Of a DNA stretch of 64,000 bases, positions 4,461-41,649 are shown piece after piece. How positions within the stretch are numbered: position 1 is the first letter of the stretch; every line of letters begins with the position of its first letter. The DNA comes from a virus: the IMG/VR virus record IMGVR_UViG_3300036770_005462, positions 8,103-72,102 of that record. One strand, given 5' to 3'. A program made the position numbers and the translations under genes. The notes under the pieces are model-generated. The model saw only the letters and a program-made list of their open reading frames with translations, had not been told where the DNA came from and searched no databases.

Positions 4461-5789
4461 ATGCTGCTAGAAACTTCTCTTAACCGCCAGCCAGCGAGTA
4501 ATCCGTCCGGCGCAGGCGTGTGGTCGGAAATAGCGGTCATTTCTCAGGTGCCGTCGTGGGCTACTGGGCTATACATTACTGGTCAGGGTAGCAACAGTTC
4601 CGGCGGCTACACCATCGGTGTGCGTCGTATTGGGCAGTCGTGGTCGCCAGTTAGCACCATGTGGGGGTATTCGCAGCGCGGATTCTTTGTTGAGATTGAC
4701 CCCGCAACGCGGAAAATTCAGCAGTACATCACGCAGACGACGTTCTGCAATCCGTATATTTTTGGATACTTTGGCCACGAAGCTGGCTGGCTCCATCCGG
4801 CGACGCAGCTTACCGCTACGCTGAATCAGCAGTGGGAAACGTATTCTTTTTCCCCCACTAACGGCGATCCGTGCAGCGCGGTGCTGTTGGAAGTCGTTGG
4901 CTCGACGGCGTTTGCGTTTCGGTACAAGGGCACAAGTATCGACATATCGGGGACGCTCGAAGGTGGCGGCGATAGTTTTATTGTTCCCGTTAATGCCAGT
5001 GGCGAATTCGAATTAAAAATGGATTCCGGCGTTTCTGCATACATCGTCGGCTATTTGAAAACGGGCGTGACTGCGTTCACTACTGCGCAGGAGCTTACTG
5101 TTACCCCACTGAACTCGTCGAATACGTACACCTCTCCTGCGATACCGCTCTCGGCGCGGGGGCGCAGTGGAATCGCACTGATAAAGAACATCGACGGCCC
5201 CGCTACTACAAATCGAAGTGCGATTTTGTACCATAAGGACTACACGTCGTTTCCGTGGGGTGGGGCCAATCTTTATGAGCCGGGGGCTATTGCACCCGTC
5301 TTCGCCGGACCAAAGCCGTCCAACGGGCTGTATTACTCGCCGTATTGCAACGCCAACCTCGGCATCTATTACATCGCAATGCTGGAAGATGTAGCGGAGC
5401 CTCCGCCGCCGAAGCAGTACCCGGCAGAAGACGTTACTGACGGCGGATGGTTGCCGTCCGAAAACGGTGCCGATTTGGCAGTGATGTTGGCGGACAACGA
5501 CGGCGACAAGTACATTTATGCGCGCGAGCCAACTACGTGCGAGGTGCTTCTTCTTCCGTTTGTCGATCCTGCCAGCAGCACGGGGCACACTGTGCAGTGT
5601 CGTATGTGGGTCGACGCAGGCACCCGCAACGTCAAGGTGTTTCTGATGCAGGGGGCCACTGAGAAGGCGTCGTGGACGCAGGAGGTCACGACGACGGCTA
5701 CTGTGTACACCTTTACGTTGTCCGGTGCGCAAGCGGACTCGATCACCGATTACGCCGCGCTGCGGCTTAAATTCGAATTGATGGCGTAA
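4461..5789 (+). CDS. Tail fibre / receptor-binding-like protein, paralog A; its C-terminal module is shared with the next two genes
   Basis: 442 aa. The C-terminal ~120 aa (DGGWLPSENG...LSGAQADSITDYAALRLKFE) is clearly homologous to the C-terminus of 5790..7073 and to an internal segment of 7073..10702. GC looks lower than in the flanking genes. Confidence 0.55.
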   Translation: MLLETSLNRQPASNPSGAGVWSEIAVISQVPSWATGLYITGQGSNSSGGYTIGVRRIGQSWSPVSTMWGYSQRGFFVEIDPATRKIQQYITQTTFCNPYIFGYFGHEAGWLHPATQLTATLNQQWETYSFSPTNGDPCSAVLLEVVGSTAFAFRYKGTSIDISGTLEGGGDSFIVPVNASGEFELKMDSGVSAYIVGYLKTGVTAFTTAQELTVTPLNSSNTYTSPAIPLSARGRSGIALIKNIDGPATTNRSAILYHKDYTSFPWGGANLYEPGAIAPVFAGPKPSNGLYYSPYCNANLGIYYIAMLEDVAEPPPPKQYPAEDVTDGGWLPSENGADLAVMLADNDGDKYIYAREPTTCEVLLLPFVDPASSTGHTVQCRMWVDAGTRNVKVFLMQGATEKASWTQEVTTTATVYTFTLSGAQADSITDYAALRLKFELMA

Positions 5790-7073: not shown

Positions 7074-10000
7074 TGGCGATCAGTTTCGTCTCCGCTGGCG
7101 CAGTAGCCTACACGAGTCAGAACGGCTCGAGCATTTCTGTTCCGTATCCGGCGAACATTGCGAATGGAGACGGCGTTGTTCTGATCTGCGGCATGAAGCC
7201 GGCGACGGCGAACGGCGGCACGTTCCCGACGTTGACCGGTTTCTCCGTAGCTGCCTCACTGTACGCCGCGGGCGGGTACGGGACTACGAAGGGGAACGAT
7301 ACCGGCAACACTAACGCCGTTGCGTACTTCCGCCCGTGCGACGGGACGGAAACCGGCAACCTCACGGTCTCCGTAAGCGACAGCAACATCGCGTGGGGCG
7401 TGATGTTGCGCTTCACGAAGACGGCCGGGACAGAGTGGAACTGGGACTGGGACGGCACGTGGGGCCAAGATACCACTGCTGGCACGGCTGTTTCGGTACT
7501 GCTTGATGCGGATGGCATTGGGGGTATCAGCTACAGGCCCGGCGACTTCTTCGTCGTCGGGATGTGTATTCCGACCGATGCTTCGACGCCGAATCAGTTC
7601 TCCGCGCACAGCATTTCGCTGACGAACGTCACGTTTAGCTCGGTGACGGAGGTCGTCGAGCCGGATTCGTCGGCCGGTCAGGACATTGGTGGCTTCGTCA
7701 CGTACGGATCGGTTACCGCCGCTACGAACAGCGAGGTTATTGGCGACCCCACTTACACCGCAACTGCGGGCGGCACGACGACGAACGTGCGCGGCCCGTT
7801 GGTGCTCGTTCGGTTTCGTGAGTACAAAGTCGTCAGTTCGGATCTGTCGGACGAGTACGGCGTCACTGGCGCGGTTAAGACGGACTACGCCGATTCGTAC
7901 GGCATTTTCCAGCCACAACGCGCGGCGGTGTCGTGGATCGAGTTCGACGTCGCGGACACGAAAGTTGTCTCTGACCTGTCGGACTCGTACATAACGGGCA
8001 CGACGGTACGGATTTACTCGGCTTCCTTTGCGACAAACTATGACGCCAACGTAACCGCCGTTACTTCGAGCCTCGCAGATCAGTACAACATATACGACGG
8101 CTCATCGAACCAGACAGTAACCAGCGACTACGCAGATTCGTATGAAATTTCCGGCGCAGTTACGTCCGACTACGCCGACTCCTACGGTGTTAGCGTTGGC
8201 GTTACTAGTGACTACGACGATTCGTATGCCATTGGTATCAGTGTCACTAGTGACTACGCTGACTCCTACGTTGTTAGCGCTAGCGTTACTAGTGACTACG
8301 ATGATTCGTACGCCGTCGGTACTAGTGTCGTTAGTGACTACGCCGACTCCTACGTCGTTCACGTAGCGGCTACGTCGGATTACGCCGATTCGTACGTTCT
8401 CAATTCGCAAATCACGAACGACCTCGCGGACGAGTATGTGGTCCGCACCGGCGTCACCAGCGACTACGCCGACACGTTCAATGTCGTCGCTTACAAGGGT
8501 CGCCCGAACGCGCCCAAGTCCGACGGCGGGTGGTTGCCGTCCACCGGCGGGCAGCTGTATGCCTGTATTGATGAAGTCACGCCGGATGACGTCGACTACA
8601 TCTACACCACCGGCGAAGTCCTCGGCAGCGTCTACATCGACGGGATGTCGGACCCCGGGTCCGACTTCGCACACGTGCTGTCGGTCCGGGCGTGGGCCGC
8701 GGTCGGCGCAACGCTGCCGGTTTACCTCGTTGTCAGTTTCTATCAGGAGAACGGCCCCGCTCTGCTGACGAGCGAGGTTGTGGAGCTGTCGGAAAACCCT
8801 GCGACGTTCCGGTTTACGGTGCCGACGTCGCAGTCGTCGCTGATTACTGACTACAACAACCCCGGCAAGAAGTTCGTAGTCGAGTTCCAAGCGGACCGCA
8901 TCGGTGCGCCGGCCTTCGAAGCGCGGATCTCGTGGATCGAGGTCGACGTTGCGGCGACTACGTTCCCCGTCGTAAACAACCTTGCCGACGAGTACGTCGT
9001 TAACGAGCGCGTCACCAGCGATCTGGCCGACGAGTACGTGGTGCGGCAGAGCGTGTCGAGCGATCTGGCGGATTCCTACTCTGTTAGCGCGCCGGTGTGG
9101 GCGGATCTCGCGGACGAGTACGTCGTTGCGACGTCGCTCAACAGCGATCTTGCGGATTCGTACATTGTTTATGCGCTGGTCAATCAGGACTTGCTGGACG
9201 AGTACCTCGTCTATGTGCGGACCAGCGCCGATTACGACGACTTGTACGTCCTCCGTCAGGGGGTCTCGCAAGACCTGAACGATGAGTTCGTGGTCATTGG
9301 GCGAGTCTCGTCAGACCTCGCTGATTCGTACAACGTCGAGCAGGCTGCTGGAAAGGTTACCAGCGACTACGACGACTCGTATGTCGTCCGCAACGTCGTT
9401 ACGTCGGATCTCGACGATTCGTACTTCATCACGACGCTGGTCACGACTGACTACGCGGATGAATATGTAGTCCGCGCGGCAGTCACGACCGACTACGCAG
9501 ATGAGTACGTAGTCAATGCGCCGGTTACGTCCGACTACGCGGATGAATATGTAGTCCGCAACGTCGTTACGTCGGACTACGCGGATGAATATGTAGTCAC
9601 GGGTCGCGTTACTAGCGACTACGACGACTCGTATGGAATCGCAGGCGTCGCGACCGGCGACTACGATGATTCGTACGTCGTTGCTGTCCGCGTTACCGGC
9701 GACCTCGCTGACGAGTACATCGTTCGCAACGGCGTTACGTCGGACTTCGCTGACGAGTACCTCGTTGCTTCGTCTGTCACCAGCGATCTGGCGGATAGCT
9801 ATGGCGTCGCCGGGCTTGTCACTTCTGATTACGACGACTCGTATGTCGTTCGCACCAGCGTCACGTCCGATCTCGACGACTCGTACGCCATCCGCAACGT
9901 CGTCACGTCGGATCTGGCTGACGAGTACCTCGTAATTGCGCGGGTCAGCAGCGACCTCGATGACTCGTACCTCGTCGAGGAAGTCGGCAAAGTCAGCAAC

Positions 10001-29300: not shown

Positions 29301-29430
29301 ACCCACGGCAGGTCACGCAATTCAGCTGCTGCAAACCATCGCCGGAAGCCCGCAGGACAGCATGTCACAGGCGGTCTTGCGCTCGCTGCCGGCTTCGCCA
29401 ATCCTGCGTGGTATCGATGCCCGGATCTGA
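23311..29430 (+). CDS. Giant virion-associated protein (2039 aa), likely an internal/ejection protein
   Basis: Uninterrupted 6.1-kb ORF, translationally coupled to the upstream gene. It contains a lone HExxH (AHHEAVHDF) at about residue 1220. No RNAP motifs are recognised. Confidence 0.6.
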   Translation: MAGLRLYSLPPEEERPLTPYEQAVRGVDSSGGEFGRGVTSGLLGAFGGGYNATAGAFQEAMGGDPTRSYDTSRGLLRRAGQAAPIVNNWDKVNGVGDFLDYAAGAAGQGLASTAPGVAATLLTRSPRVGLATMFPMEMGESVAATRFDPSIQQPDTATMLSGAATKGAVNTAIEAVPFMNIFGRGPLRPLMKAATMPARAGGHMLAEGGTELAQQRVGQLAQDYMVPGRDTSEDNMELREAFLQGTLGATPFAGMSLAGHAARDAGVGMSSAIDKLFPAKGEPTALDDLIESTKSVGTKLKEKFDPVLGKDTAETMENLRKPVDVDALNEGKQFNLMRPGVDTAEDDIKKKHSFLRQQLGNKHTWLAEPLAKAMDRYLRGDTPGGDDAKFKQAILEAFDGNVERANGVMEHFAKAVEDFSGTLGERTTIYDTAREPSWGDREADDDTAAAPEGPAIEEGGQEYTPKANYRFAGTGRLRPYENRAQAGAARRALGAAEGSKVKVRTMLDWAQERGKDPDKALTDMIGGLRYDLNDIQKRLQDRDMPKEQREDLLQRSNEIVSLLRKAIPTTDPDTGEITDSATERLSKLFVLRGEALPADDLTATSEEIAAYADKREAFGGAKGAMVKFRAPNGKVQNFNARQILDLGLKSWSKRNPDQKFVDGPAHWRRVYEDGIARLTNAGYVPDQSERNGAFRPSLVVRDGETYGGLVEKTAQSGQTFDALRDEQFGADAAADQRAILSEPMQASPQEIAARKAEGWVPPTVAPEEQSSGRGDRMVETNLLNRESQQGPEGNVGEGFDPTLNTLRDQDPDGPRLFDENIVNSANPDFAPERLEDTLAKPYMVPDKRAKGGARKAKGEEVRVSGAPLAQPQAATGSNLEKLQGLKDHIEAYRANLEQRGIDPTKAPTMRLLLKRMAELEAERTKLTKEDVAAEESVADTAAREEANRALKREEAAAEKTRMAEVTKTQVIEPAEKPKAAPKKSKKKAKGYRYEIKDDMTEDEVGETRRLELINDLKKAGGVNLQDVMDVIGERKARGVKVMPGLFTKTGMRVDMLAEWMAENGYIADESETDKAWDIVRAATDKQGVFKIEDQDDLGRRRFEERANKEYSRMDLSGGAGQKLTADERQALIKEIVRLRGTQLQIAFKEFAQMGPAKLDAKGNPILDANGDPVRQGASGEWSKDKTAAHAQKIITLAVDIGFSNAMSVAHHEAVHDFFAALRSADSSPEMRNIAMTIERVAELPHIRKQLETLLKKHPEALEQLKNPEERAAYLFQFWKAGLIKDLAPSARNWFERLLKFLRDVLGIVSLEEKGEKLMLALDAGKFTDASTVGRVVAQMKLETAGDKLQRVAPALWHVGNVVMASVTDRMRLTEVPAIMAIADRLHRDVSRQTGMRDDRRPGATKADRRNDPTEQTDFLDAKQRASGIWYSQLLNLFQGADKFQIADALEALQSQEDSTDPMVVKIRAFLKRFHEYLSKADVMVMDDSPYEKIDSKGKTVWVSGDAARRWVPIAERQVGNYFPRSWDREKIMAHKDAFVDLIVQKGREGNKTVTRERALEIFDTMTSAEQDEIADGAAFTPYLMSANTRALRFITKDNAKDFAKFQKKDMVAILSTYTYQAVHRAEFTRYFGHDGQWIREKLAEAEAQGATPEQMATARKGVEAMLGSLGRDMTEGTRKLMTSLMAYENIVLLPLALVNNFMDVLQIGLRTGDLTESFNAMKQGVIGLKRQIMREGPDEAEQFSRLLGMIDENVELASYGMLYDGHFMGGMAKKVSDKFFRWNGMATWNTRMRVAATQAGVRFIERHADKALKGDEQSIRWLKELGLEKSDVRRDSNGKPMFKREDWAQKLNKPVDSKEVIAAADRMQKALFLFVDSAVIRPSAAHRPIWGSDPHWMLVFHLKQFTYSFQQVVLKYTRKELQHGNSFPAIALMMYVPFAMVTDLTRSAIVGRPIDFSLSGLMGSAVRNSAVLGTGTFGIDAWNDLGKNQVPGASFLGPTAGHAIQLLQTIAGSPQDSMSQAVLRSLPASPILRGIDARI

Positions 29431-29433
29431 CCG

Positions 29434-29859
29434 ATGTACTGCATTCGGGAAGTCGACGGTGATGAGGAGGCCGAGGTCATCGGGGAGCTGCATCGTATCT
29501 GCCTGCCGCATGACGAGCTGCCATCGACCACTGACGGTTGGTGGTGGCTCGCCTATGCGGGTGACGTAGCCGTCGGCTACGCCGGCATGCGGGATGCCAA
29601 GAGTGAGCCCGGAGCGGCGTTTCTCTGCATCGCCGGCGTAGTTCCCGAACACCGCGGCAAGGGCCTGCAGCGCAGGCTGATCAGGGTCCGGGTGCAGAAG
29701 GCGCGCCGCTTGATGAAGCGCGCCGTAATCTCCTACACGATGGACAACGCGCCGAGCGGCAACAACCTGATCGCTTGCGGCTTCCGTTTATACAGCCCAG
29801 ACAAGCGCTGGGAGGGCGGGGATGTGGCCTACTGGCGCAGACTTCTGGTGAATGACTAG
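29434..29859 (+). CDS. GNAT family N-acetyltransferase (141 aa)
   Basis: Acetyl-CoA binding motif VVPEHRGKGLQRRLI (Q/R-x-x-G-x-G/A). The size matches a single-domain GNAT. The start lies 4 nt after the giant gene stop. Confidence 0.65.
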   Translation: MYCIREVDGDEEAEVIGELHRICLPHDELPSTTDGWWWLAYAGDVAVGYAGMRDAKSEPGAAFLCIAGVVPEHRGKGLQRRLIRVRVQKARRLMKRAVISYTMDNAPSGNNLIACGFRLYSPDKRWEGGDVAYWRRLLVND

Positions 29860-29896
29860 GCATAGAATCCGGCGAGCCGGCTTACTGCCAGAGAAA

Positions 29897-29930
29897 AAGA
29901 GCCGGGATCACCGGCTCTTTACTTTTTTCT
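29897..29930. terminator. Bidirectional rho-independent terminator at the convergence point of the two arms
   Basis: AAAGAGCCGG-GATCA-CCGGCTCTTT hairpin with T-runs on both strands (ACTTTTTTCT on +, and a TTTTCTCT equivalent on -). Confidence 0.8.
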
Positions 29931-30331
29931 TACGCGAAGATGGCTTTCAGCCGCTTCGTAACTGACTTTGTCGGAGCCCCGGGCAGGTAGCTCCAATCGG
30001 CTCCCGGCGGACCGTAGCGCATCAGCATGCTGTGCACGTTCGGCCAGTTCGGTTCGCTCTGCGTCTTGGCTTCTATTCGCTCTCTCGTGCGCCCGCGAAT
30101 GAGGCCGTAGGCCATGTGCGTGTCACGCGCTTCCTTACGCACGTTGATCACGCGATGGCGATGCAGATCGTTCCGCAGCTGGCCCCATGAACGCTTTTCT
30201 TCCTTACGGATGATGTGCGATTCGGCCACCAGCGTTTTCAATTTCACCCGCAGCATTTCGCGGCGGTCAAGCATCTTGCCTTCTTTGTCTTGCATGTCTA
30301 TCTCCAAGTGGTGAATGAATGATCTCGCCAT
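29930..30331 (-). CDS. Hypothetical protein (133 aa), last gene of the minus arm
   Basis: ORF ending at the bidirectional terminator. Confidence 0.45.
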   Translation of the reverse strand: MARSFIHHLEIDMQDKEGKMLDRREMLRVKLKTLVAESHIIRKEEKRSWGQLRNDLHRHRVINVRKEARDTHMAYGLIRGRTRERIEAKTQSEPNWPNVHSMLMRYGPPGADWSYLPGAPTKSVTKRLKAIFA

Positions 30332-30376
30332 CTAGGAGATAGGCGGGGCTCTAATGCATTCAGGTCATGGTGTGTC

Positions 30377-30447
30377 CTTGGCGGTTCCGGTGGGAGTCGA
30401 ACCCACTGTATTTCGGGATTGAAAGCCCGATACTCACCCTGACGGAA
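30377..30447 (-). tRNA. tRNA-like element with a canonical acceptor stem, T-arm and CCA but an aberrant D/anticodon region
   Basis: Minus-strand read: GGTTCCG...GTGGG-TTCGACT-CCCAC-CGGAACC-G-CCA. The acceptor stem is a perfect 7 bp and the T-loop is TTCGACT. However, the only stem available for the anticodon arm (TCGGG/CCCGA) encloses an 8-nt loop CTTTCAAT, and no D-stem can be drawn. Confidence 0.4.
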
Positions 30448-30452
30448 CCGAA

Positions 30453-31094
30453 TTACGGCAACCTGCAGAGGGCTACGGTATCGATACGACCGTTCACGCT
30501 GCAATAGCGATACGGGTCTTTGCCAACGCTGTTTGTAATGCAATTGCATTGCGTGCCGGCTTGCACCGTGCCGTTTGATGGCGACACCAGCGCGCCGCTA
30601 CGCGTTGCGTAGGTAGGCCGCAGCCCGGTGCCTGCTACCGCGTACACCGCGCGCGACGGCGGCGTGTTCAGCGCCATTGCGGCGAATACTGCTTCGCACA
30701 GCTGTTTGTCGGCCGCGTTCTGCGCAATCGCTTCAGCACACGTGTGTCCGGTGTCTGCCCACGCAGCGGTGATCTCGTTGATCTTCGCCCGCGGGTCGGC
30801 TGCGCTAGTGATCGCTTTCGTGGCTTTCGCCAGCAGCTCGTCGAGTGAGACTTCACCGGACTTTGCCAGCAGCGTTGGGATCGCGGAAGCAGGCAGGCTA
30901 CGGAAGTAGCCAACCCATTTCGCGCCGTCCCAGCAGTACCAATACAGCGCAGTTCCGTCGGAGCGCCACAACTGAAACGGCAGCTTCGTCGGATAAGCTT
31001 TGTCGGGGTCCAGCGTGGGGTAACACGCTGGCGTCAGCTGGGCGTTTGCTGCAGTGCAAACAATCAGAAGCAAGGCGGCGATCAGGGTGCGCAT
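30453..31094 (-). CDS. Secreted/periplasmic Cys-containing protein (213 aa) with an N-terminal signal peptide
   Basis: MRTLIAALLLIVCTAANA-Q has the form of a signal peptide. The protein contains 8+ Cys. Confidence 0.5.
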   Translation of the reverse strand: MRTLIAALLLIVCTAANAQLTPACYPTLDPDKAYPTKLPFQLWRSDGTALYWYCWDGAKWVGYFRSLPASAIPTLLAKSGEVSLDELLAKATKAITSAADPRAKINEITAAWADTGHTCAEAIAQNAADKQLCEAVFAAMALNTPPSRAVYAVAGTGLRPTYATRSGALVSPSNGTVQAGTQCNCITNSVGKDPYRYCSVNGRIDTVALCRLP

Positions 31095-35406: not shown

Positions 35407-37201
35407 TGACAGGTAGATCAGGAGCCCATGCGGGCGGGGTTTTCATCACCCGAAGTCCGAAGTCGAGTGCAGCATCGGCTTCGTCCTCCGGGACGATGTA
35501 GGAAATCTCATCATGCGTCATCATCACCACGCGATACCGTTTAGCAATTTCAAGCATCTGGTCTGCTACCACACATCGCGCTAGGGCTTGTACAGCATTT
35601 TCGGTGAGCAATCCACCGTACAGCTTGACAGGCAACCCACGCTGATTGCGATAGTGACAGTCGATATAGCGACCAGACCATTCGTTGAAAAAGCCAGTGA
35701 TGTCGTTGTAGTGAATGGCGAGGCCGGAAGGAAGAATCATCTGTTCCTTCTCGACTCGCAACGCCTTGAAGTCGAATCCCTGCCCGCCAAGAATCATGAA
35801 CGCCATCAACTGTTCCATCGACTTCCATAGTCGACAGATATGCTCGTTGAACTCGCGATAGACGTTTACGATCTTTTGGCACTCTGACAATTCAAGCTGA
35901 CGCGGATTGAATTTGTCAGTAGCTAGTGTCTCTTGTAGTTTTTGTGCGCCCATCCCATACCCGAGCGCGAGTACCACGATCTTCCCCAATTGCCGTTCAT
36001 CGTCCGTGATGTCCGCGACGGCTTTCTGAAAGATTTTCGAGGCCATGACTCGATAGATGTCGGGGCCTTCGCGGCGGTCGTAACGACGGAAGATATCGAG
36101 CTTCTCATCGTCGCCAGCCAGCCACAGATTCATTCGAGCTTCGATCTGCGCCGAATCAACGGTGCAGACGACGAACCCCTCTGGGGCCAAAATAGATTTA
36201 CGCAGCTCTCCCTTTTGGGGGAGATTCTGCATGTTCATCTTGTTGCCAGCTGACCAGCGCGTCGTATGCGCGCCGCAGTACTGCAGCAGCACAGGCAAGC
36301 GCCAGCCGTTCTTGCCGGCATGGAGGAAGCGGTTGGCGCGCGTTTCGCCAAGCGTGGACTTCACGGCCAGCCGGGCGTCGATCACGTCCCGCAGGTTGCC
36401 GCTGGCTTTGTCACGTAGCGCCAGAAAGTCCACGTCCTTCTTGGCGAAGGCATACGTCATCTTGCCGGTGGTAAGGCTGCGCTTCATGGGCGGTTCCACG
36501 CCCAGCTCGCGCAGCAGATCAGCAAACTCGTCAGCAGAAGACAGCTGGTCGGCACGAACGCCGGCGCGCAGTACCTTGGCGACTTTCTGGCCGACTTCGC
36601 GTTCCAGTTCTGCTTCGACCCGCGGAAGGTCGACCAGCAGGATCGGATCGCAGAACATGCGCAGGGTCAGGTCGATCAGGTCGCGTTCGGCTGCAGGCAC
36701 TTTCGGGCATAGATACTTGTATGCCTCGCGCATGATCCAGACGTCTTGCACGCCATACTCGGCTAAATCGATCAGCTCGTCTTCGGTCAGGTCGCGCTTG
36801 CCCTTGGTGTCTTCGAGCTTGCCCTTGATCTTGCCGGGCAGTTTCAGACGGGCAGCAACTTCGTCGAGCCGATGCAGGACGTTGGCTCCCCAATGCGCGC
36901 GGGACAGCAGCATGGTGTCGCAGTAGCGCGCCGGGATCTTGCCGTAGTGATGCGATAGGATGAATCCATCGAATGCGGTGTTGTGACAGATAAGTTCTAT
37001 CTCGTCCCAATCCCATTCGTCGAACAGCTTCTGCAGGCTTTCGGTGGAGGCCCACTGCAGTGGGCCGTCATCGAACGCCCACTGCACCATGTGGGCCTTA
37101 AACCGTTCGTCGCGGATGTACTCGCTGGTCGACATCTTGGCCGACGACAGCGTGTAGCCCTTGTCGTAAAACGTCTCGAAATCTAGAAACAGCTTTTTCA
37201 T
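35369..37201 (-). CDS. Family A DNA polymerase with an N-terminal 3'-5' exonuclease domain
   Basis: Exo I motif LDFETFYD, a motif B-like RQLGKIVVLALGYGMGAQKL, and motif C MMTHDEISY. Confidence 0.8.
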   Translation of the reverse strand: MKKLFLDFETFYDKGYTLSSAKMSTSEYIRDERFKAHMVQWAFDDGPLQWASTESLQKLFDEWDWDEIELICHNTAFDGFILSHHYGKIPARYCDTMLLSRAHWGANVLHRLDEVAARLKLPGKIKGKLEDTKGKRDLTEDELIDLAEYGVQDVWIMREAYKYLCPKVPAAERDLIDLTLRMFCDPILLVDLPRVEAELEREVGQKVAKVLRAGVRADQLSSADEFADLLRELGVEPPMKRSLTTGKMTYAFAKKDVDFLALRDKASGNLRDVIDARLAVKSTLGETRANRFLHAGKNGWRLPVLLQYCGAHTTRWSAGNKMNMQNLPQKGELRKSILAPEGFVVCTVDSAQIEARMNLWLAGDDEKLDIFRRYDRREGPDIYRVMASKIFQKAVADITDDERQLGKIVVLALGYGMGAQKLQETLATDKFNPRQLELSECQKIVNVYREFNEHICRLWKSMEQLMAFMILGGQGFDFKALRVEKEQMILPSGLAIHYNDITGFFNEWSGRYIDCHYRNQRGLPVKLYGGLLTENAVQALARCVVADQMLEIAKRYRVVMMTHDEISYIVPEDEADAALDFGLRVMKTPPAWAPDLPVNAEGKYARYYSK

Positions 37202-37663
37202 CTATGACTGGACTACGAAGGCATTCTCGCTGCGTTTGGTTATCTTGATCTCTGCGCCAGCAGCGGCGAGCTGCATCATGGCTACTGCGCGATCAGGCCA
37301 TTCATACGTGTTGCCTTCCCAGTTCAAATGAACGAACGCGCCGACATTCTTGGATGGTTCATTGAAGTGCACGATGAAGTGGTCGCCGTTAGCCACTTTC
37401 TTGCGAATGATGTCCAGCAAGTTTTTGATCGTTGGCTTGGGCGTTGCGTCCTGCACGGCTTTCTGCATTTCGTACTCGGCCTTCATCTTCTGCATTTCAA
37501 GATTCAGCTTCGCCACTTCCAGATCCATCATCATTTTGTCGTGCAGCAGACGAAAAGCGCAGTTTTCTGAGCTTGATTCTGAATCCTCGGGCGGCGAATT
37601 TGATGGCAAGAGTTTCCGCATCGAATTCATCAAACCGGTACCAAGCTGCACTAGTCGCTCCAT
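37202..37663 (-). CDS. Hypothetical protein (153 aa)
   Basis: Its stop is adjacent to the polymerase start. Confidence 0.4.
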   Translation of the reverse strand: MERLVQLGTGLMNSMRKLLPSNSPPEDSESSSENCAFRLLHDKMMMDLEVAKLNLEMQKMKAEYEMQKAVQDATPKPTIKNLLDIIRKKVANGDHFIVHFNEPSKNVGAFVHLNWEGNTYEWPDRAVAMMQLAAAGAEIKITKRSENAFVVQS

Positions 37664-40500: not shown

Positions 40501-41649
40501 TCATTCAATCCTCACGACTTCGCCAAAGGGGGGATTTTCGTCGGTGATCATGGCCCACATCACCGGCCATTGCACGTCTCGTTCTTCGGGGTACGTGCCC
40601 CAGCCGTCAGTCAGGTAGATTACGCACTTGGGCTCGATGCCGTTTTCTTCGAGCCACTTGAATGGCGGACGGAAATCCGTACCGCCGCCGCCTTTGGCGT
40701 CGACGAGCGCCGCAGGCAGTTCGTCTCCCACGTCGGCTTCGATTACGCGATGCACGATGGCATCGCAGTCGATGACGTAGATCTTGCTGGGCTGCACGTC
40801 GAGCGCAATGGACTCGATCTCGCCGTTGAACTGACGTAGGGCTTCTGGTGTGCTATAGATCGAACCGGACGTATCGCGGATGATAGCGATGGGCCCCACG
40901 CGCTCGCTGTCGCGTGCCGGCAGGTACAAGCCCTCGCTGATGAAGCGCCGGTTGGCTTTGTTCCAGCTTTCCTCATCCCGAGCTTTTTCGCTGATGAACC
41001 GGCGCAACGGGTGTTTCCACTCGATCTTCGGTTCCAGCGCCTCGTCGAGGAACTTGTCCAGATGTGCGGGCATGCGCCCCGCCATCTTGGCGGCATGACG
41101 CGCTGCAGCGACGGCTTGTCGCCACTCGGATTCAGCCTGCTTGTTCAGGACGTCCTGCGACTGCTTACCGTCGTTGGGCGTGTCCCGTACTTCGCCACAG
41201 CCGCCGGGGTCGTCGCCTTCCTTGTCCCAGCCGCCGGGAGGTTCAGGCAGCTGCGTGTAGATCTGCTCGGCGCTCATGTTGGCGTACTGCGGGCTTTCCA
41301 GTGCGCCGTCCGGCAGCTTGTACTTCTTGCTGATCAGTGGATTCAGCGCGTAGTCGCACGCGACATTCCACTTCTTGTGGTGCCGGTTACCACGGCGCGT
41401 GTGATGAAGTAGGGCCGGGTGCATCAGTTCGTGTACGAGTAGCCCTCGACGTTCTTCGCCTGTCAGGCTCAGAACGTACTTCATGTTGTAGCCGATGGTT
41501 GCGCCGTCGCACCACGCGGTGTCGCACGTTGGGTCCTCGCGCATCTTCATGCGCAACGCCAATACCCCATAGAAGGGCTCGGACATGACGAGTTCAGTCC
41601 GGGCCTTCACCATGGGGTTTACGTTGGTGAGGATCTTAGCTGGCATCAA
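40501..41649 (-). CDS. Zn-metallopeptidase-like (HELMH) + von Willebrand factor A domain protein, partner of the MoxR ATPase
   Basis: HELMH motif at about residue 83. The C-terminal half (IRDTSGSIYS...VIYLTDGWG) is VWA-like with a MIDAS-like DxSGS. Confidence 0.55.
   Translation of the reverse strand: MMPAKILTNVNPMVKARTELVMSEPFYGVLALRMKMREDPTCDTAWCDGATIGYNMKYVLSLTGEERRGLLVHELMHPALLHHTRRGNRHHKKWNVACDYALNPLISKKYKLPDGALESPQYANMSAEQIYTQLPEPPGGWDKEGDDPGGCGEVRDTPNDGKQSQDVLNKQAESEWRQAVAAARHAAKMAGRMPAHLDKFLDEALEPKIEWKHPLRRFISEKARDEESWNKANRRFISEGLYLPARDSERVGPIAIIRDTSGSIYSTPEALRQFNGEIESIALDVQPSKIYVIDCDAIVHRVIEADVGDELPAALVDAKGGGGTDFRPPFKWLEENGIEPKCVIYLTDGWGTYPEERDVQWPVMWAMITDENPPFGEVVRIE

Follow-up and report, generated by a model that had tools for sequence, protein, structure and literature searches.

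A tRNA-Like Gene Without a D-Arm Precedes ORF121

The window analyzed here is a 64,000-nucleotide stretch of the IMG/VR virus record IMGVR_UViG_3300036770_005462 (positions 8,103 to 72,102), and positions are those of the window unless another contig is named. It comes from a phage with its structural genes on the plus strand up to 29859; its replication genes run along the minus strand from about 63.3 kb to 29930. Near the end of this run lies a tRNA-like element of 71 nucleotides (nt) with an encoded CCA, which is followed on the same strand by ORF121, the gene of a small basic protein. A sequence-only reading had described the element correctly, but it overlooked the strand and the obligatory partner gene. 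It had placed the element at 30377-30447, which is off by 2 nt; the true location is 30449..30379 on the minus strand. The parts of the pair, including those defined with the family model R2 and the alignment A2 described below, are as follows.

30379..30449, minus strand: D-arm-less tRNA-like RNA gene (sequence, RNAfold, Rfam tRNA, family model R2)
30443..30449, minus strand: 5' strand of the acceptor stem, GGTTCCG, with 7/7 Watson-Crick pairs to CGGAACC at 30383-30389
30434..30442, minus strand: connector TCAGGGTGA, 9 nt, in the position of the D-arm (alignment A2)
30408..30433, minus strand: extended anticodon arm (RNAfold, alignment A2)
30418-30425, minus strand: 8-nt anticodon loop CTTTCAAT
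30420-30422, minus strand: UCA stop anticodon, flanked by a 5' U and a 3' A
30390..30406, minus strand: T-arm GTGGG / TTCGACT / CCCAC, with 5 base pairs (bp) and a 7-nt loop (sequence, RNAfold)
30382, minus strand: discriminator G, followed by CCA at 30379-30381, minus strand (sequence)
29930..30295, minus strand: ORF121, 121 amino acids (aa), a basic helical-hairpin protein whose gene begins 83 nt past the RNA in the same orientation

From 5' to 3' the element reads GGTTCCG-TCAGGGTGA-GTATCGGG-CTTTCAAT-CCCGAAATAC-A-GTGGG-TTCGACT-CCCAC-CGGAACC-G-CCA. The perfect acceptor stem and T-arm and the encoded CCA, as described before, were present both in the sequence and in the RNAfold structure, which is a three-way junction of -25.7 kcal/mol (z = -1.9). 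The missing D-arm, the 36 nt between the acceptor stem and the T-stem, and the 8-nt loop were likewise found in the sequence. No D-stem can be drawn in the 9 nt between the acceptor and the anticodon helix, and none appeared in the RNAfold structure. The anticodon arm is made of an outer 4-bp helix (GTAT/ATAC), a 2-nt bulge and an inner helix (CGGG/CCCG), 8 bp in total. Thus the canonical 7-bp acceptor stem, the 5-bp T-stem with a TPsiC-type 7-nt loop, and the 3' NCCA are present, while the D-arm (a 3-4 bp stem with its loop) and the 5-bp anticodon stem with a 7-nt loop are absent.

In its standard mode, ARAGORN found no tRNA in the whole window. The mitochondrial mode did report an 8-nt loop with the anticodon 'ttca', but through an 84-nt model that was inferior; this model was dropped in favor of the 71-nt one, since its upstream acceptor stem paired at just 5 of 7 positions and was not kept in the close relative L005. 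The Rfam tRNA model RF00005 scored the element at 30.4 bits against a gathering score of 29 and aligned the D-arm as a single pair. Searching cultured phages with the 71 nt by blastn returned T-arm fragments only (E about 0.6), and an exact scan of IMG/VR with the 25 nt of the 3' end gave 0 matches. Taken in isolation, the tRNA-likeness of the element is marginal.

The Element Belongs to a Conserved RNA Family

The loci of ORF121 homologs were collected from IMG/VR (79), metagenomes (53), and species genomes (6, all of them contigs of metagenome-assembled genomes, MAGs). At these loci ARAGORN reported tRNAs beside the gene with the anticodons CUA, UUA, and UCA, the 4-nt 'ttca', and the 2-nt 'tc'. 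Moreover, a motif search recovered many elements with the architecture of the window element that ARAGORN had missed. In at least 26 unique sequences from unrelated phages, the acceptor is separated from the GGG of the anticodon stem by only 13-15 nt, which leaves no room for a D-arm. These D-armless elements typically share their strand with the ORF121 homolog and precede it by about 85-170 nt, and CCA is encoded in 23 of the 33 unique copies. About 18 further family members have a D-arm and the identical 8-nt loop size. The family architecture consists of a 7-bp acceptor, a connector of 9-10 nt with an invariant G, a split and covarying anticodon helix, the 8-nt loop, and a canonical T-arm.

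The covariance model R2 was built from 23 other phages, with the window and L005 excluded. It matched the window element over its full length (model positions 1-70) with 80.2 bits and an E-value of 1.3e-22, which is far beyond chance. In the alignment A2 of 25 D-armless members, 92.4% of the cells were paired compared with 67.1% after shuffling, and none of 500 shuffles attained the observed value. When the 3' partner was moved by 1-3 columns, the pairing was 42-56%. Double-sided changes occurred at 16 of the 19 pairs, including 7/7 in the acceptor helix, which was itself a criterion for selecting the sequences, and 4/5 in the T-arm, where pairing is complete (100%) across the family. The outer anticodon helix, which played no part in selecting the sequences, was 79.8% paired and covaried at all four pairs, with the variants GTAT/ATAC, GCAT/ATGC, GCGG/CCGC, and GGGC/GCCC.

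One connector G, the inner GG/CC, UUUCAA, and the T-loop are invariant in A2. The connector of the window element holds this G (nt 12, window 30438) together with a neighboring G, and it is plausible from the alignment that the two are candidate equivalents of G18/G19 for contacts with the T-loop. The D-arms of several cloverleaf members with an 8-nt loop (L021, L045, L046, L060, L074, L115, L117, and L016) are atypical. They take the form of a 4-bp stem with a 7-nt loop of the NAAGGCG/CAGGGCG form, and L016 (1092-1166) has a 6-bp D-stem with a 3-nt loop, reminiscent of tRNA-Sec. Such members look like intermediates between the full cloverleaf and the armless form. Judged from these comparisons, the element is a member of a large, unannotated phage RNA family with a conserved architecture. 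The comparisons also show that an entire class of viral tRNA genes escapes standard tRNA finders.

A Stop Anticodon in an 8-nt Loop

Across the family, the loop follows the rule N-Y-U-[UCA/CUA/UUA]-A-N, in which a stop anticodon lies between U and A. The window loop, C-U-U-UCA-A-U (CTTTCAAT), is the commonest one, with 35 unique sequences. The opal-type 8-nt loops were CUUUCAAU (35 unique sequences), AUUUCAAC, CCUUCAAU, and ACUUCAAA; the amber-type ones in D-armless members were CUUCUAAA, ACUCUAAA, and AUUCUAAA; and an ochre-type loop, AUUUUAAC, was found in one cloverleaf member. UCA is the usual anticodon of the D-armless members and CUA is rare. The amber loops among them (CTTCTAAA, ACTCTAAA, and ATTCTAAA) fix the register N-Y-U-[stop]-A-N and exclude a Glu reading. 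A tRNA-Glu(UUC) reading of the loop was therefore rejected, also because the matches to ordinary tRNA-Glu came without ORF121. With U33 and a purine at position 37 around the stop anticodon (U-UCA-A), the element has the loop trait of nonsense suppressors.

Most of the loops also fit a quadruplet layout, Y32-U33-[4-nt anticodon]-A37-N38, as in CU-UUCA-AU of the window and CU-UCUA-AA of the locus L222. The relatives with CCUUCAAU and ACUUCAAA have C at the would-be position 33. The suggestion of a frameshift-suppressor type, made from the sequence alone, was right in so far as the 8-nt loop is conserved and fits C-U-[UUCA]-A-U, but the constant feature is the stop anticodon, which had gone unnoticed.

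Ordinary amber, ochre, or opal suppressor tRNAs occupy the same slot in other phages and have 7-nt loops (CUCUAAA, UUUCAAA, CUUCAAA, and UUUUAAC). In Stenotrophomonas phage Summit, the tRNA in this slot was annotated as 'suppressor tRNA' by the depositors. In the N4-like Agrobacterium phage OLIVR1 (L227, NC_055840.1 40274-40918), a tRNA with the 8-nt loop GCCCUAAC precedes the ORF121 homolog; this tRNA is annotated as tRNA-Val, and ARAGORN gave it the anticodon 'ccta'. Among 82 comparisons of nearest neighbors in ORF121, the anticodon class was shared in 58 and different in 24, which means some phylogenetic signal along with frequent switching.

ORF121 and the RNA Form a Two-Gene Unit

The AF2 model of ORF121 (pLDDT 85) showed a long basic helical hairpin with short helices. 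ORF121 had no PHROG, Pfam, or PDB-sequence match and no specific fold match. A profile search returned 3,271 clusters (50% identity), and for 2,087 the E-value was 1e-10 or lower. Among cultured phages the family is present in only 10 records, and in 185,579 species genomes there were 6 matches, all on MAG contigs. The cultured carriers include the Stenotrophomonas phages DLP5, DLP3, and Summit and the Agrobacterium phages OLIVR1-3. The OLIVR1 homolog is annotated as 'putative structural protein', which hints that proteins of this family might occur in virions.

The linkage was examined from both sides. Starting from the RNA, a pattern of the loop and the T-arm retrieved 80 IMG/VR loci, of which 76 were parsed, and a hidden Markov model of ORF121 was run on their flanks. 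An ORF121-like open reading frame (ORF) was found downstream on the same strand in 17/17 loci of the D-armless class. The class defined by a D-arm and an ORF121 neighbor comprised 25 loci, all 25 with ORF121, and the loop was 8 nt in those inspected. Ordinary tRNA-Glu genes, with a 7-nt loop closed by G.U and a typical Glu D-arm, had ORF121 beside them in none of 34 cases. Starting from the protein, a strict script showed that at least 66 of the 115 loci with adequate flanks have a tRNA of the stop type or a tRNA-like element no more than 700 nt away, and ARAGORN together with the covariance model raised the count beyond 66. Suppressor tRNAs have been found in just 0.3% of standard-code bacterial genomes (PMC13092985), so the association of stop-type tRNAs with ORF121 is far above this background.

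In many loci the equivalent tRNA sits downstream of the ORF121 homolog, and no third conserved flanking gene recurred around the cassette. As read from these neighborhoods, the RNA and ORF121 make up a cassette of two genes that travels among very different phage backgrounds. For the ORF121 family, whose members are known as 'hypothetical protein' in about 3,300 clusters, the strict pairing with an RNA is the first functional lead.

The stretch between the two genes has a structure of its own.

30296..30378, minus strand: ORF121 leader with a hairpin (RNAfold, z = -2.2)

The hairpin pairs CUAUCUCC (30335-30342) with the Shine-Dalgarno region GGAGAUAG (30298-30305), and this predicted fold suggests that the translation of ORF121 may be controlled by the leader. 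A similar hairpin is possible in the leader of L005, where it was not significant. The element could be a cis-acting processing or regulatory element of ORF121. In the manner of tRNA punctuation, RNase P together with RNase Z or E would cut the polycistronic transcript at the tRNA shape, and the cut would set the 5' end of an ORF121 mRNA with its ribosome-binding site in the hairpin. The D-armless form typically precedes the gene by about 85-170 nt in the same orientation, which is in keeping with this, as are the lack of a promoter between the element and the upstream ORF and the occlusion of the ribosome-binding site by the leader hairpin. However, processing does not depend on a conserved anticodon loop, whereas no stretch of the RNA is better conserved than UUCAA, and in many loci the equivalent tRNA follows the gene. 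We consider a purely cis-acting role quite unlikely, and processing would in any case be compatible with a role in trans.

Genomic Context and Close Relatives

The nearest cultured relatives of the window phage are the Pseudomonas phages KPP25 and phiR18, with 42% identity in a primase-like protein. KPP25, which has no tRNA, no such element, and no ORF121, was used as a negative comparator. The element begins 3 nt past the stop codon of an upstream ORF of 213 aa of the secreted type (ORF213), and ORF121 is the last gene ahead of a terminator-like hairpin.

29896..29920, no strand assigned: bidirectional terminator-like hairpin that separates ORF121 from the convergent GNAT gene (terminator scan)

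That this hairpin ends the minus-strand transcription unit is weakly indicated, as the scan found 1 site against a mean of 1.9 in shuffled sequences. No promoter-like site was found near the element or between it and the upstream ORF, and the element is therefore probably co-transcribed with its neighbors.

ORF213 (30453-31094, minus strand) is Cys-rich, has an N-terminal signal-like segment, and matched no family. It is missing at the corresponding position in L005, and a copy with 64% identity lies in an unrelated context on the IMG/VR contig L001. This contig, the sole relative found through ORF213, has neither the tRNA-like RNA nor ORF121 within 8.6 kb, which marks ORF213 as an unrelated insertion; it appears to be a mobile insertion of the 'moron' type. 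Two further observations concern the replication module. A 382-aa HNH endonuclease (phrog_1314) is encoded at 40501-41649 on the minus strand, probably a homing endonuclease unrelated to the RNA. And at 37199-37204 the TAG of a 153-aa ORF (37202..37663) abuts, in the same frame, the ATG of a 610-aa family-A DNA polymerase. The KPP25 polymerase is likewise annotated as two pieces, and the two ORFs may represent a split or read-through polymerase.

The same phage was also found in the Logan contig L004 (72 kb). In the relative L005/L006, ORF121 is 84% identical, the flanking DNA 76-90% and the element 94%. The element of L005 differs by 4 substitutions, two of which make a compensatory change from T-A to C-G in the outer anticodon helix. 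In L005 a normal tRNA-Glu(UUC) lies 2 nt past the element (4838-4912) and a tRNA-Arg(UCU) just past ORF121 (5374-5449). The window phage has lost both of these ordinary tRNAs, whereas the D-armless element was retained. After its CCA, the window reads AGGAC... (30370-30378), where GGAC corresponds to the first bases of the lost tRNA-Glu; by this resemblance, it may be a deletion scar of that gene.

The true tRNA-Glu of L005 shares GGGTGAG and the T-loop with the element next to it. Together with the marginal Rfam score and the negative ARAGORN result, this could speak for a decaying pseudo-tRNA, as had been proposed from the sequence alone: a functionless copy of tRNA-Glu(UUC) whose 5' D-stem was lost and whose loop grew by one nucleotide. 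But the same 'defects' are found in at least 26 unique sequences, and dozens of unrelated phages have this architecture, every helix of which shows compensatory changes. The R2 score of 80 bits, the 17/17 linkage with ORF121, the amber versions of the architecture, which exclude a Glu origin of the loop, and the retention of the element while the real tRNAs were lost all argue against decay, and we regard it as very improbable.

Phage sequences derived from tRNAs are often att sites, and an attP-like role in integration had also been suggested. The element would then be an attP core or an integration scar copying part of a host tRNA. No integrase or recombinase was found among about 50 window ORFs scanned, and KPP25 and phiR18 have no annotated integrase and no such element. 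Moreover, the element has a complete 5' half and a perfect acceptor stem and is not a mere 3' fragment of a tRNA, its 25-nt 3' end had no exact match in IMG/VR, and the acceptor stems vary across the family. The near absence of ORF121 from the species genomes further indicates that the carriers are not typical prophages. These findings leave an att origin only the slightest likelihood, and both it and the pseudo-tRNA explanation are effectively excluded.

A Possible Two-Component Recoding Cassette

Our preferred interpretation, to which we assign a probability of roughly 0.45, sees the element as a functional phage tRNA of non-canonical form, joined with ORF121 in a two-component cassette of the opal type. 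We infer that the RNA is processed, charged, able to decode and bound by ORF121. It would be transcribed at the end of the replication-gene operon, released by RNase P and 3' trimming, and folded into an L-shape by contacts between the GG of the connector and the T-loop. The basic helical hairpin of ORF121 would bind the RNA and perhaps substitute for the missing D-arm. In the ribosomal A site, the RNA would then act at UGA, either as an opal suppressor of attenuated strength or with U-UCA serving as a 4-base anticodon that reads UGA-A with a +1 shift. During infection, a few stop codons of the phage or its host would in this way be read through or recoded.

Several findings weigh against this interpretation. 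TGA is the commonest stop codon of the phage, ending 38 of 82 ORFs in simple greedy calls (47 of 87 in the cassette-free KPP25), so an efficient opal suppressor would harm the proteins of the phage itself. None of the genes was found to be interrupted by an in-frame stop, and a search for split genes gave only ordinary same-frame neighbors. The stop codon of ORF121 itself was considered as a suppression target and rejected, as it does not track the tRNA class. The discriminator base and the acceptor sequence vary across the family, and no single synthetase identity is evident from them. To our knowledge, D-armless tRNAs are known as decoders in mitochondria only, and they decode poorly on bacterial ribosomes. 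Furthermore, helices 1, 3, and 4 of A2 are biased towards pairing, because they were among the criteria by which the sequences were selected. The TGA usage, the uninterrupted genes, and the variable discriminator speak against a strong general suppressor but still leave room for an attenuated or context-specific decoder.

The same findings bear on a rival that had been named in part from the sequence alone, as a tRNA mimic for priming, integration, or anti-defence. Its integration part has fallen with the att site, but a non-decoding mimic is a live rival and the main one, if doubtful. The tRNA shape would serve for host processing and stability, and the RNA would bind ORF121 and/or a host factor that binds tRNAs, as a decoy, inhibitor, or cofactor for a nuclease, a synthetase, a RelA-type sensor, or a release factor. 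Stop anticodons and oversized loops would have been selected to avoid the decoding of sense codons. A mimic would explain why any stop anticodon seems enough, as the class differs in 24/82 of the nearest ORF121 neighbors, and it would fit the loss of the D-arm and the 8-nt (also 6-nt) loops, which would weaken decoding. TGA stops that are not avoided and a discriminator that is not conserved also speak for it, and the strict linkage to a basic helical protein is reminiscent of RNA-protein complexes. On the other hand, the U preceding the stop anticodon and the A following it hardly ever vary, a pattern shared with efficient decoders, and the alternative occupants of the slot carry textbook suppressor loops such as CUCUAAA. 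There is also no known target, and ORF121 matches no anti-defence protein and no known fold.

The decoding interpretation can be taken further, to a natural two-component recoding device in which an armless decoder of stop or stop-plus-A codons works only with ORF121, which would replace the D-arm or escort the RNA to the ribosome. We hold this stronger version to be rather unlikely. If true, it would be the first protein-assisted armless decoder outside mitochondria, carried by a mobile cassette with which phages swap UGA, UAG, and UAA specificity, and it would give standard-code phages a new route to manipulate translation termination. A pair that decodes stops or quadruplets would also be a natural orthogonal tRNA-plus-cofactor system, useful for genetic-code expansion.

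Two observations concern UGA codons in the window. A 2039-aa virion protein ends with TGA-C, and the ATG of a 141-aa GNAT ORF follows one codon on in the same frame, which makes this junction a candidate target. The junction, ATC TGA CCG ATG, lies at 29428-29436 and is identical in L005 (5990-5998), and the GNAT ORF has no obvious Shine-Dalgarno sequence. If this UGA were read through, the virion protein, which is probably ejected, would be joined to an acetyltransferase. In addition, among the minus-strand genes between 31 and 62 kb, TGA is followed by A (TGAA) in 16 of 27 cases and TAA in 0 of 14. The excess of TGAA was dismissed as evidence for quadruplet decoding, since about 7 of the 16 are ATGA overlaps of start and stop codons with an A-rich second codon. 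The remaining excess coincides with the UGAA that a 4-base UUCA anticodon could read.

Comparison With Known Systems

The element resembles nonsense suppressor tRNAs in its UCA stop anticodon with U on the 5' and A on the 3' side, and ordinary suppressors occupy the same slot elsewhere. It differs from them in the missing D-arm, in a loop of 8 instead of 7 nt and in the extended, bulged anticodon helix. Moreover, it is tied to a dedicated small protein, and its phage uses the standard code with many TGA stops. With the +1 frameshift suppressors (sufB2, sufJ, and engineered UAGA decoders) it shares the 8-nt loop, and the members that fit the quadruplet layout would read a stop codon plus A. Known frameshift suppressors are point mutants or engineered tRNAs with a full cloverleaf that read sense quadruplets, while the phage family is D-armless, would target stop codons, and has C at the would-be position 33 in some relatives.

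The tmRNA/SmpB system likewise joins a tRNA-like RNA with a reduced D region to a dedicated small basic protein, and SmpB compensates on the ribosome for the missing tRNA parts of tmRNA. The element, in contrast, has 71 nt, no mRNA-like domain, and an anticodon arm. Neither ARAGORN nor Rfam found a tmRNA in the window, and ORF121 has no similarity to SmpB. Any parallel in function would be speculation by analogy.

In the metazoan mt-tRNA-Ser(AGY) and the Ascaris mt-tRNA-Ser(UCU) (PMC7609411), a short connector replaces the D-arm and the anticodon helix is longer, while the acceptor and the T-arm are kept, as in the phage family. These mitochondrial tRNAs are organellar, decode sense codons and have co-evolved with their synthetases, EF-Tu and ribosomes, whereas the phage RNAs belong to phages of bacteria and have stop anticodons in an 8-nt loop. 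The yeast mt-tRNA-Thr(UAG) (PMC7609411) has a natural 8-nt loop, decodes triplets and reassigns a codon family; it differs in its full cloverleaf, its mitochondrial setting, its sense codons, and the lack of a partner protein. In the same review of non-canonical tRNAs, D-armless tRNAs are listed for mitochondria only and an 8-nt loop for the yeast mt-tRNA-Thr only (PMC7609411).

No description of the RNA/ORF121 pair was found in the literature, as far as a limited full-text collection covers it, so a prior description elsewhere is possible. It is a serious possibility that the RNA and its protein make up a recoding or tRNA-mimic system of a new type, and the cultured carriers make the question directly testable. 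D-armless tRNAs have been seen as a mitochondrial oddity, and a widespread, conserved family in phages would change this picture.

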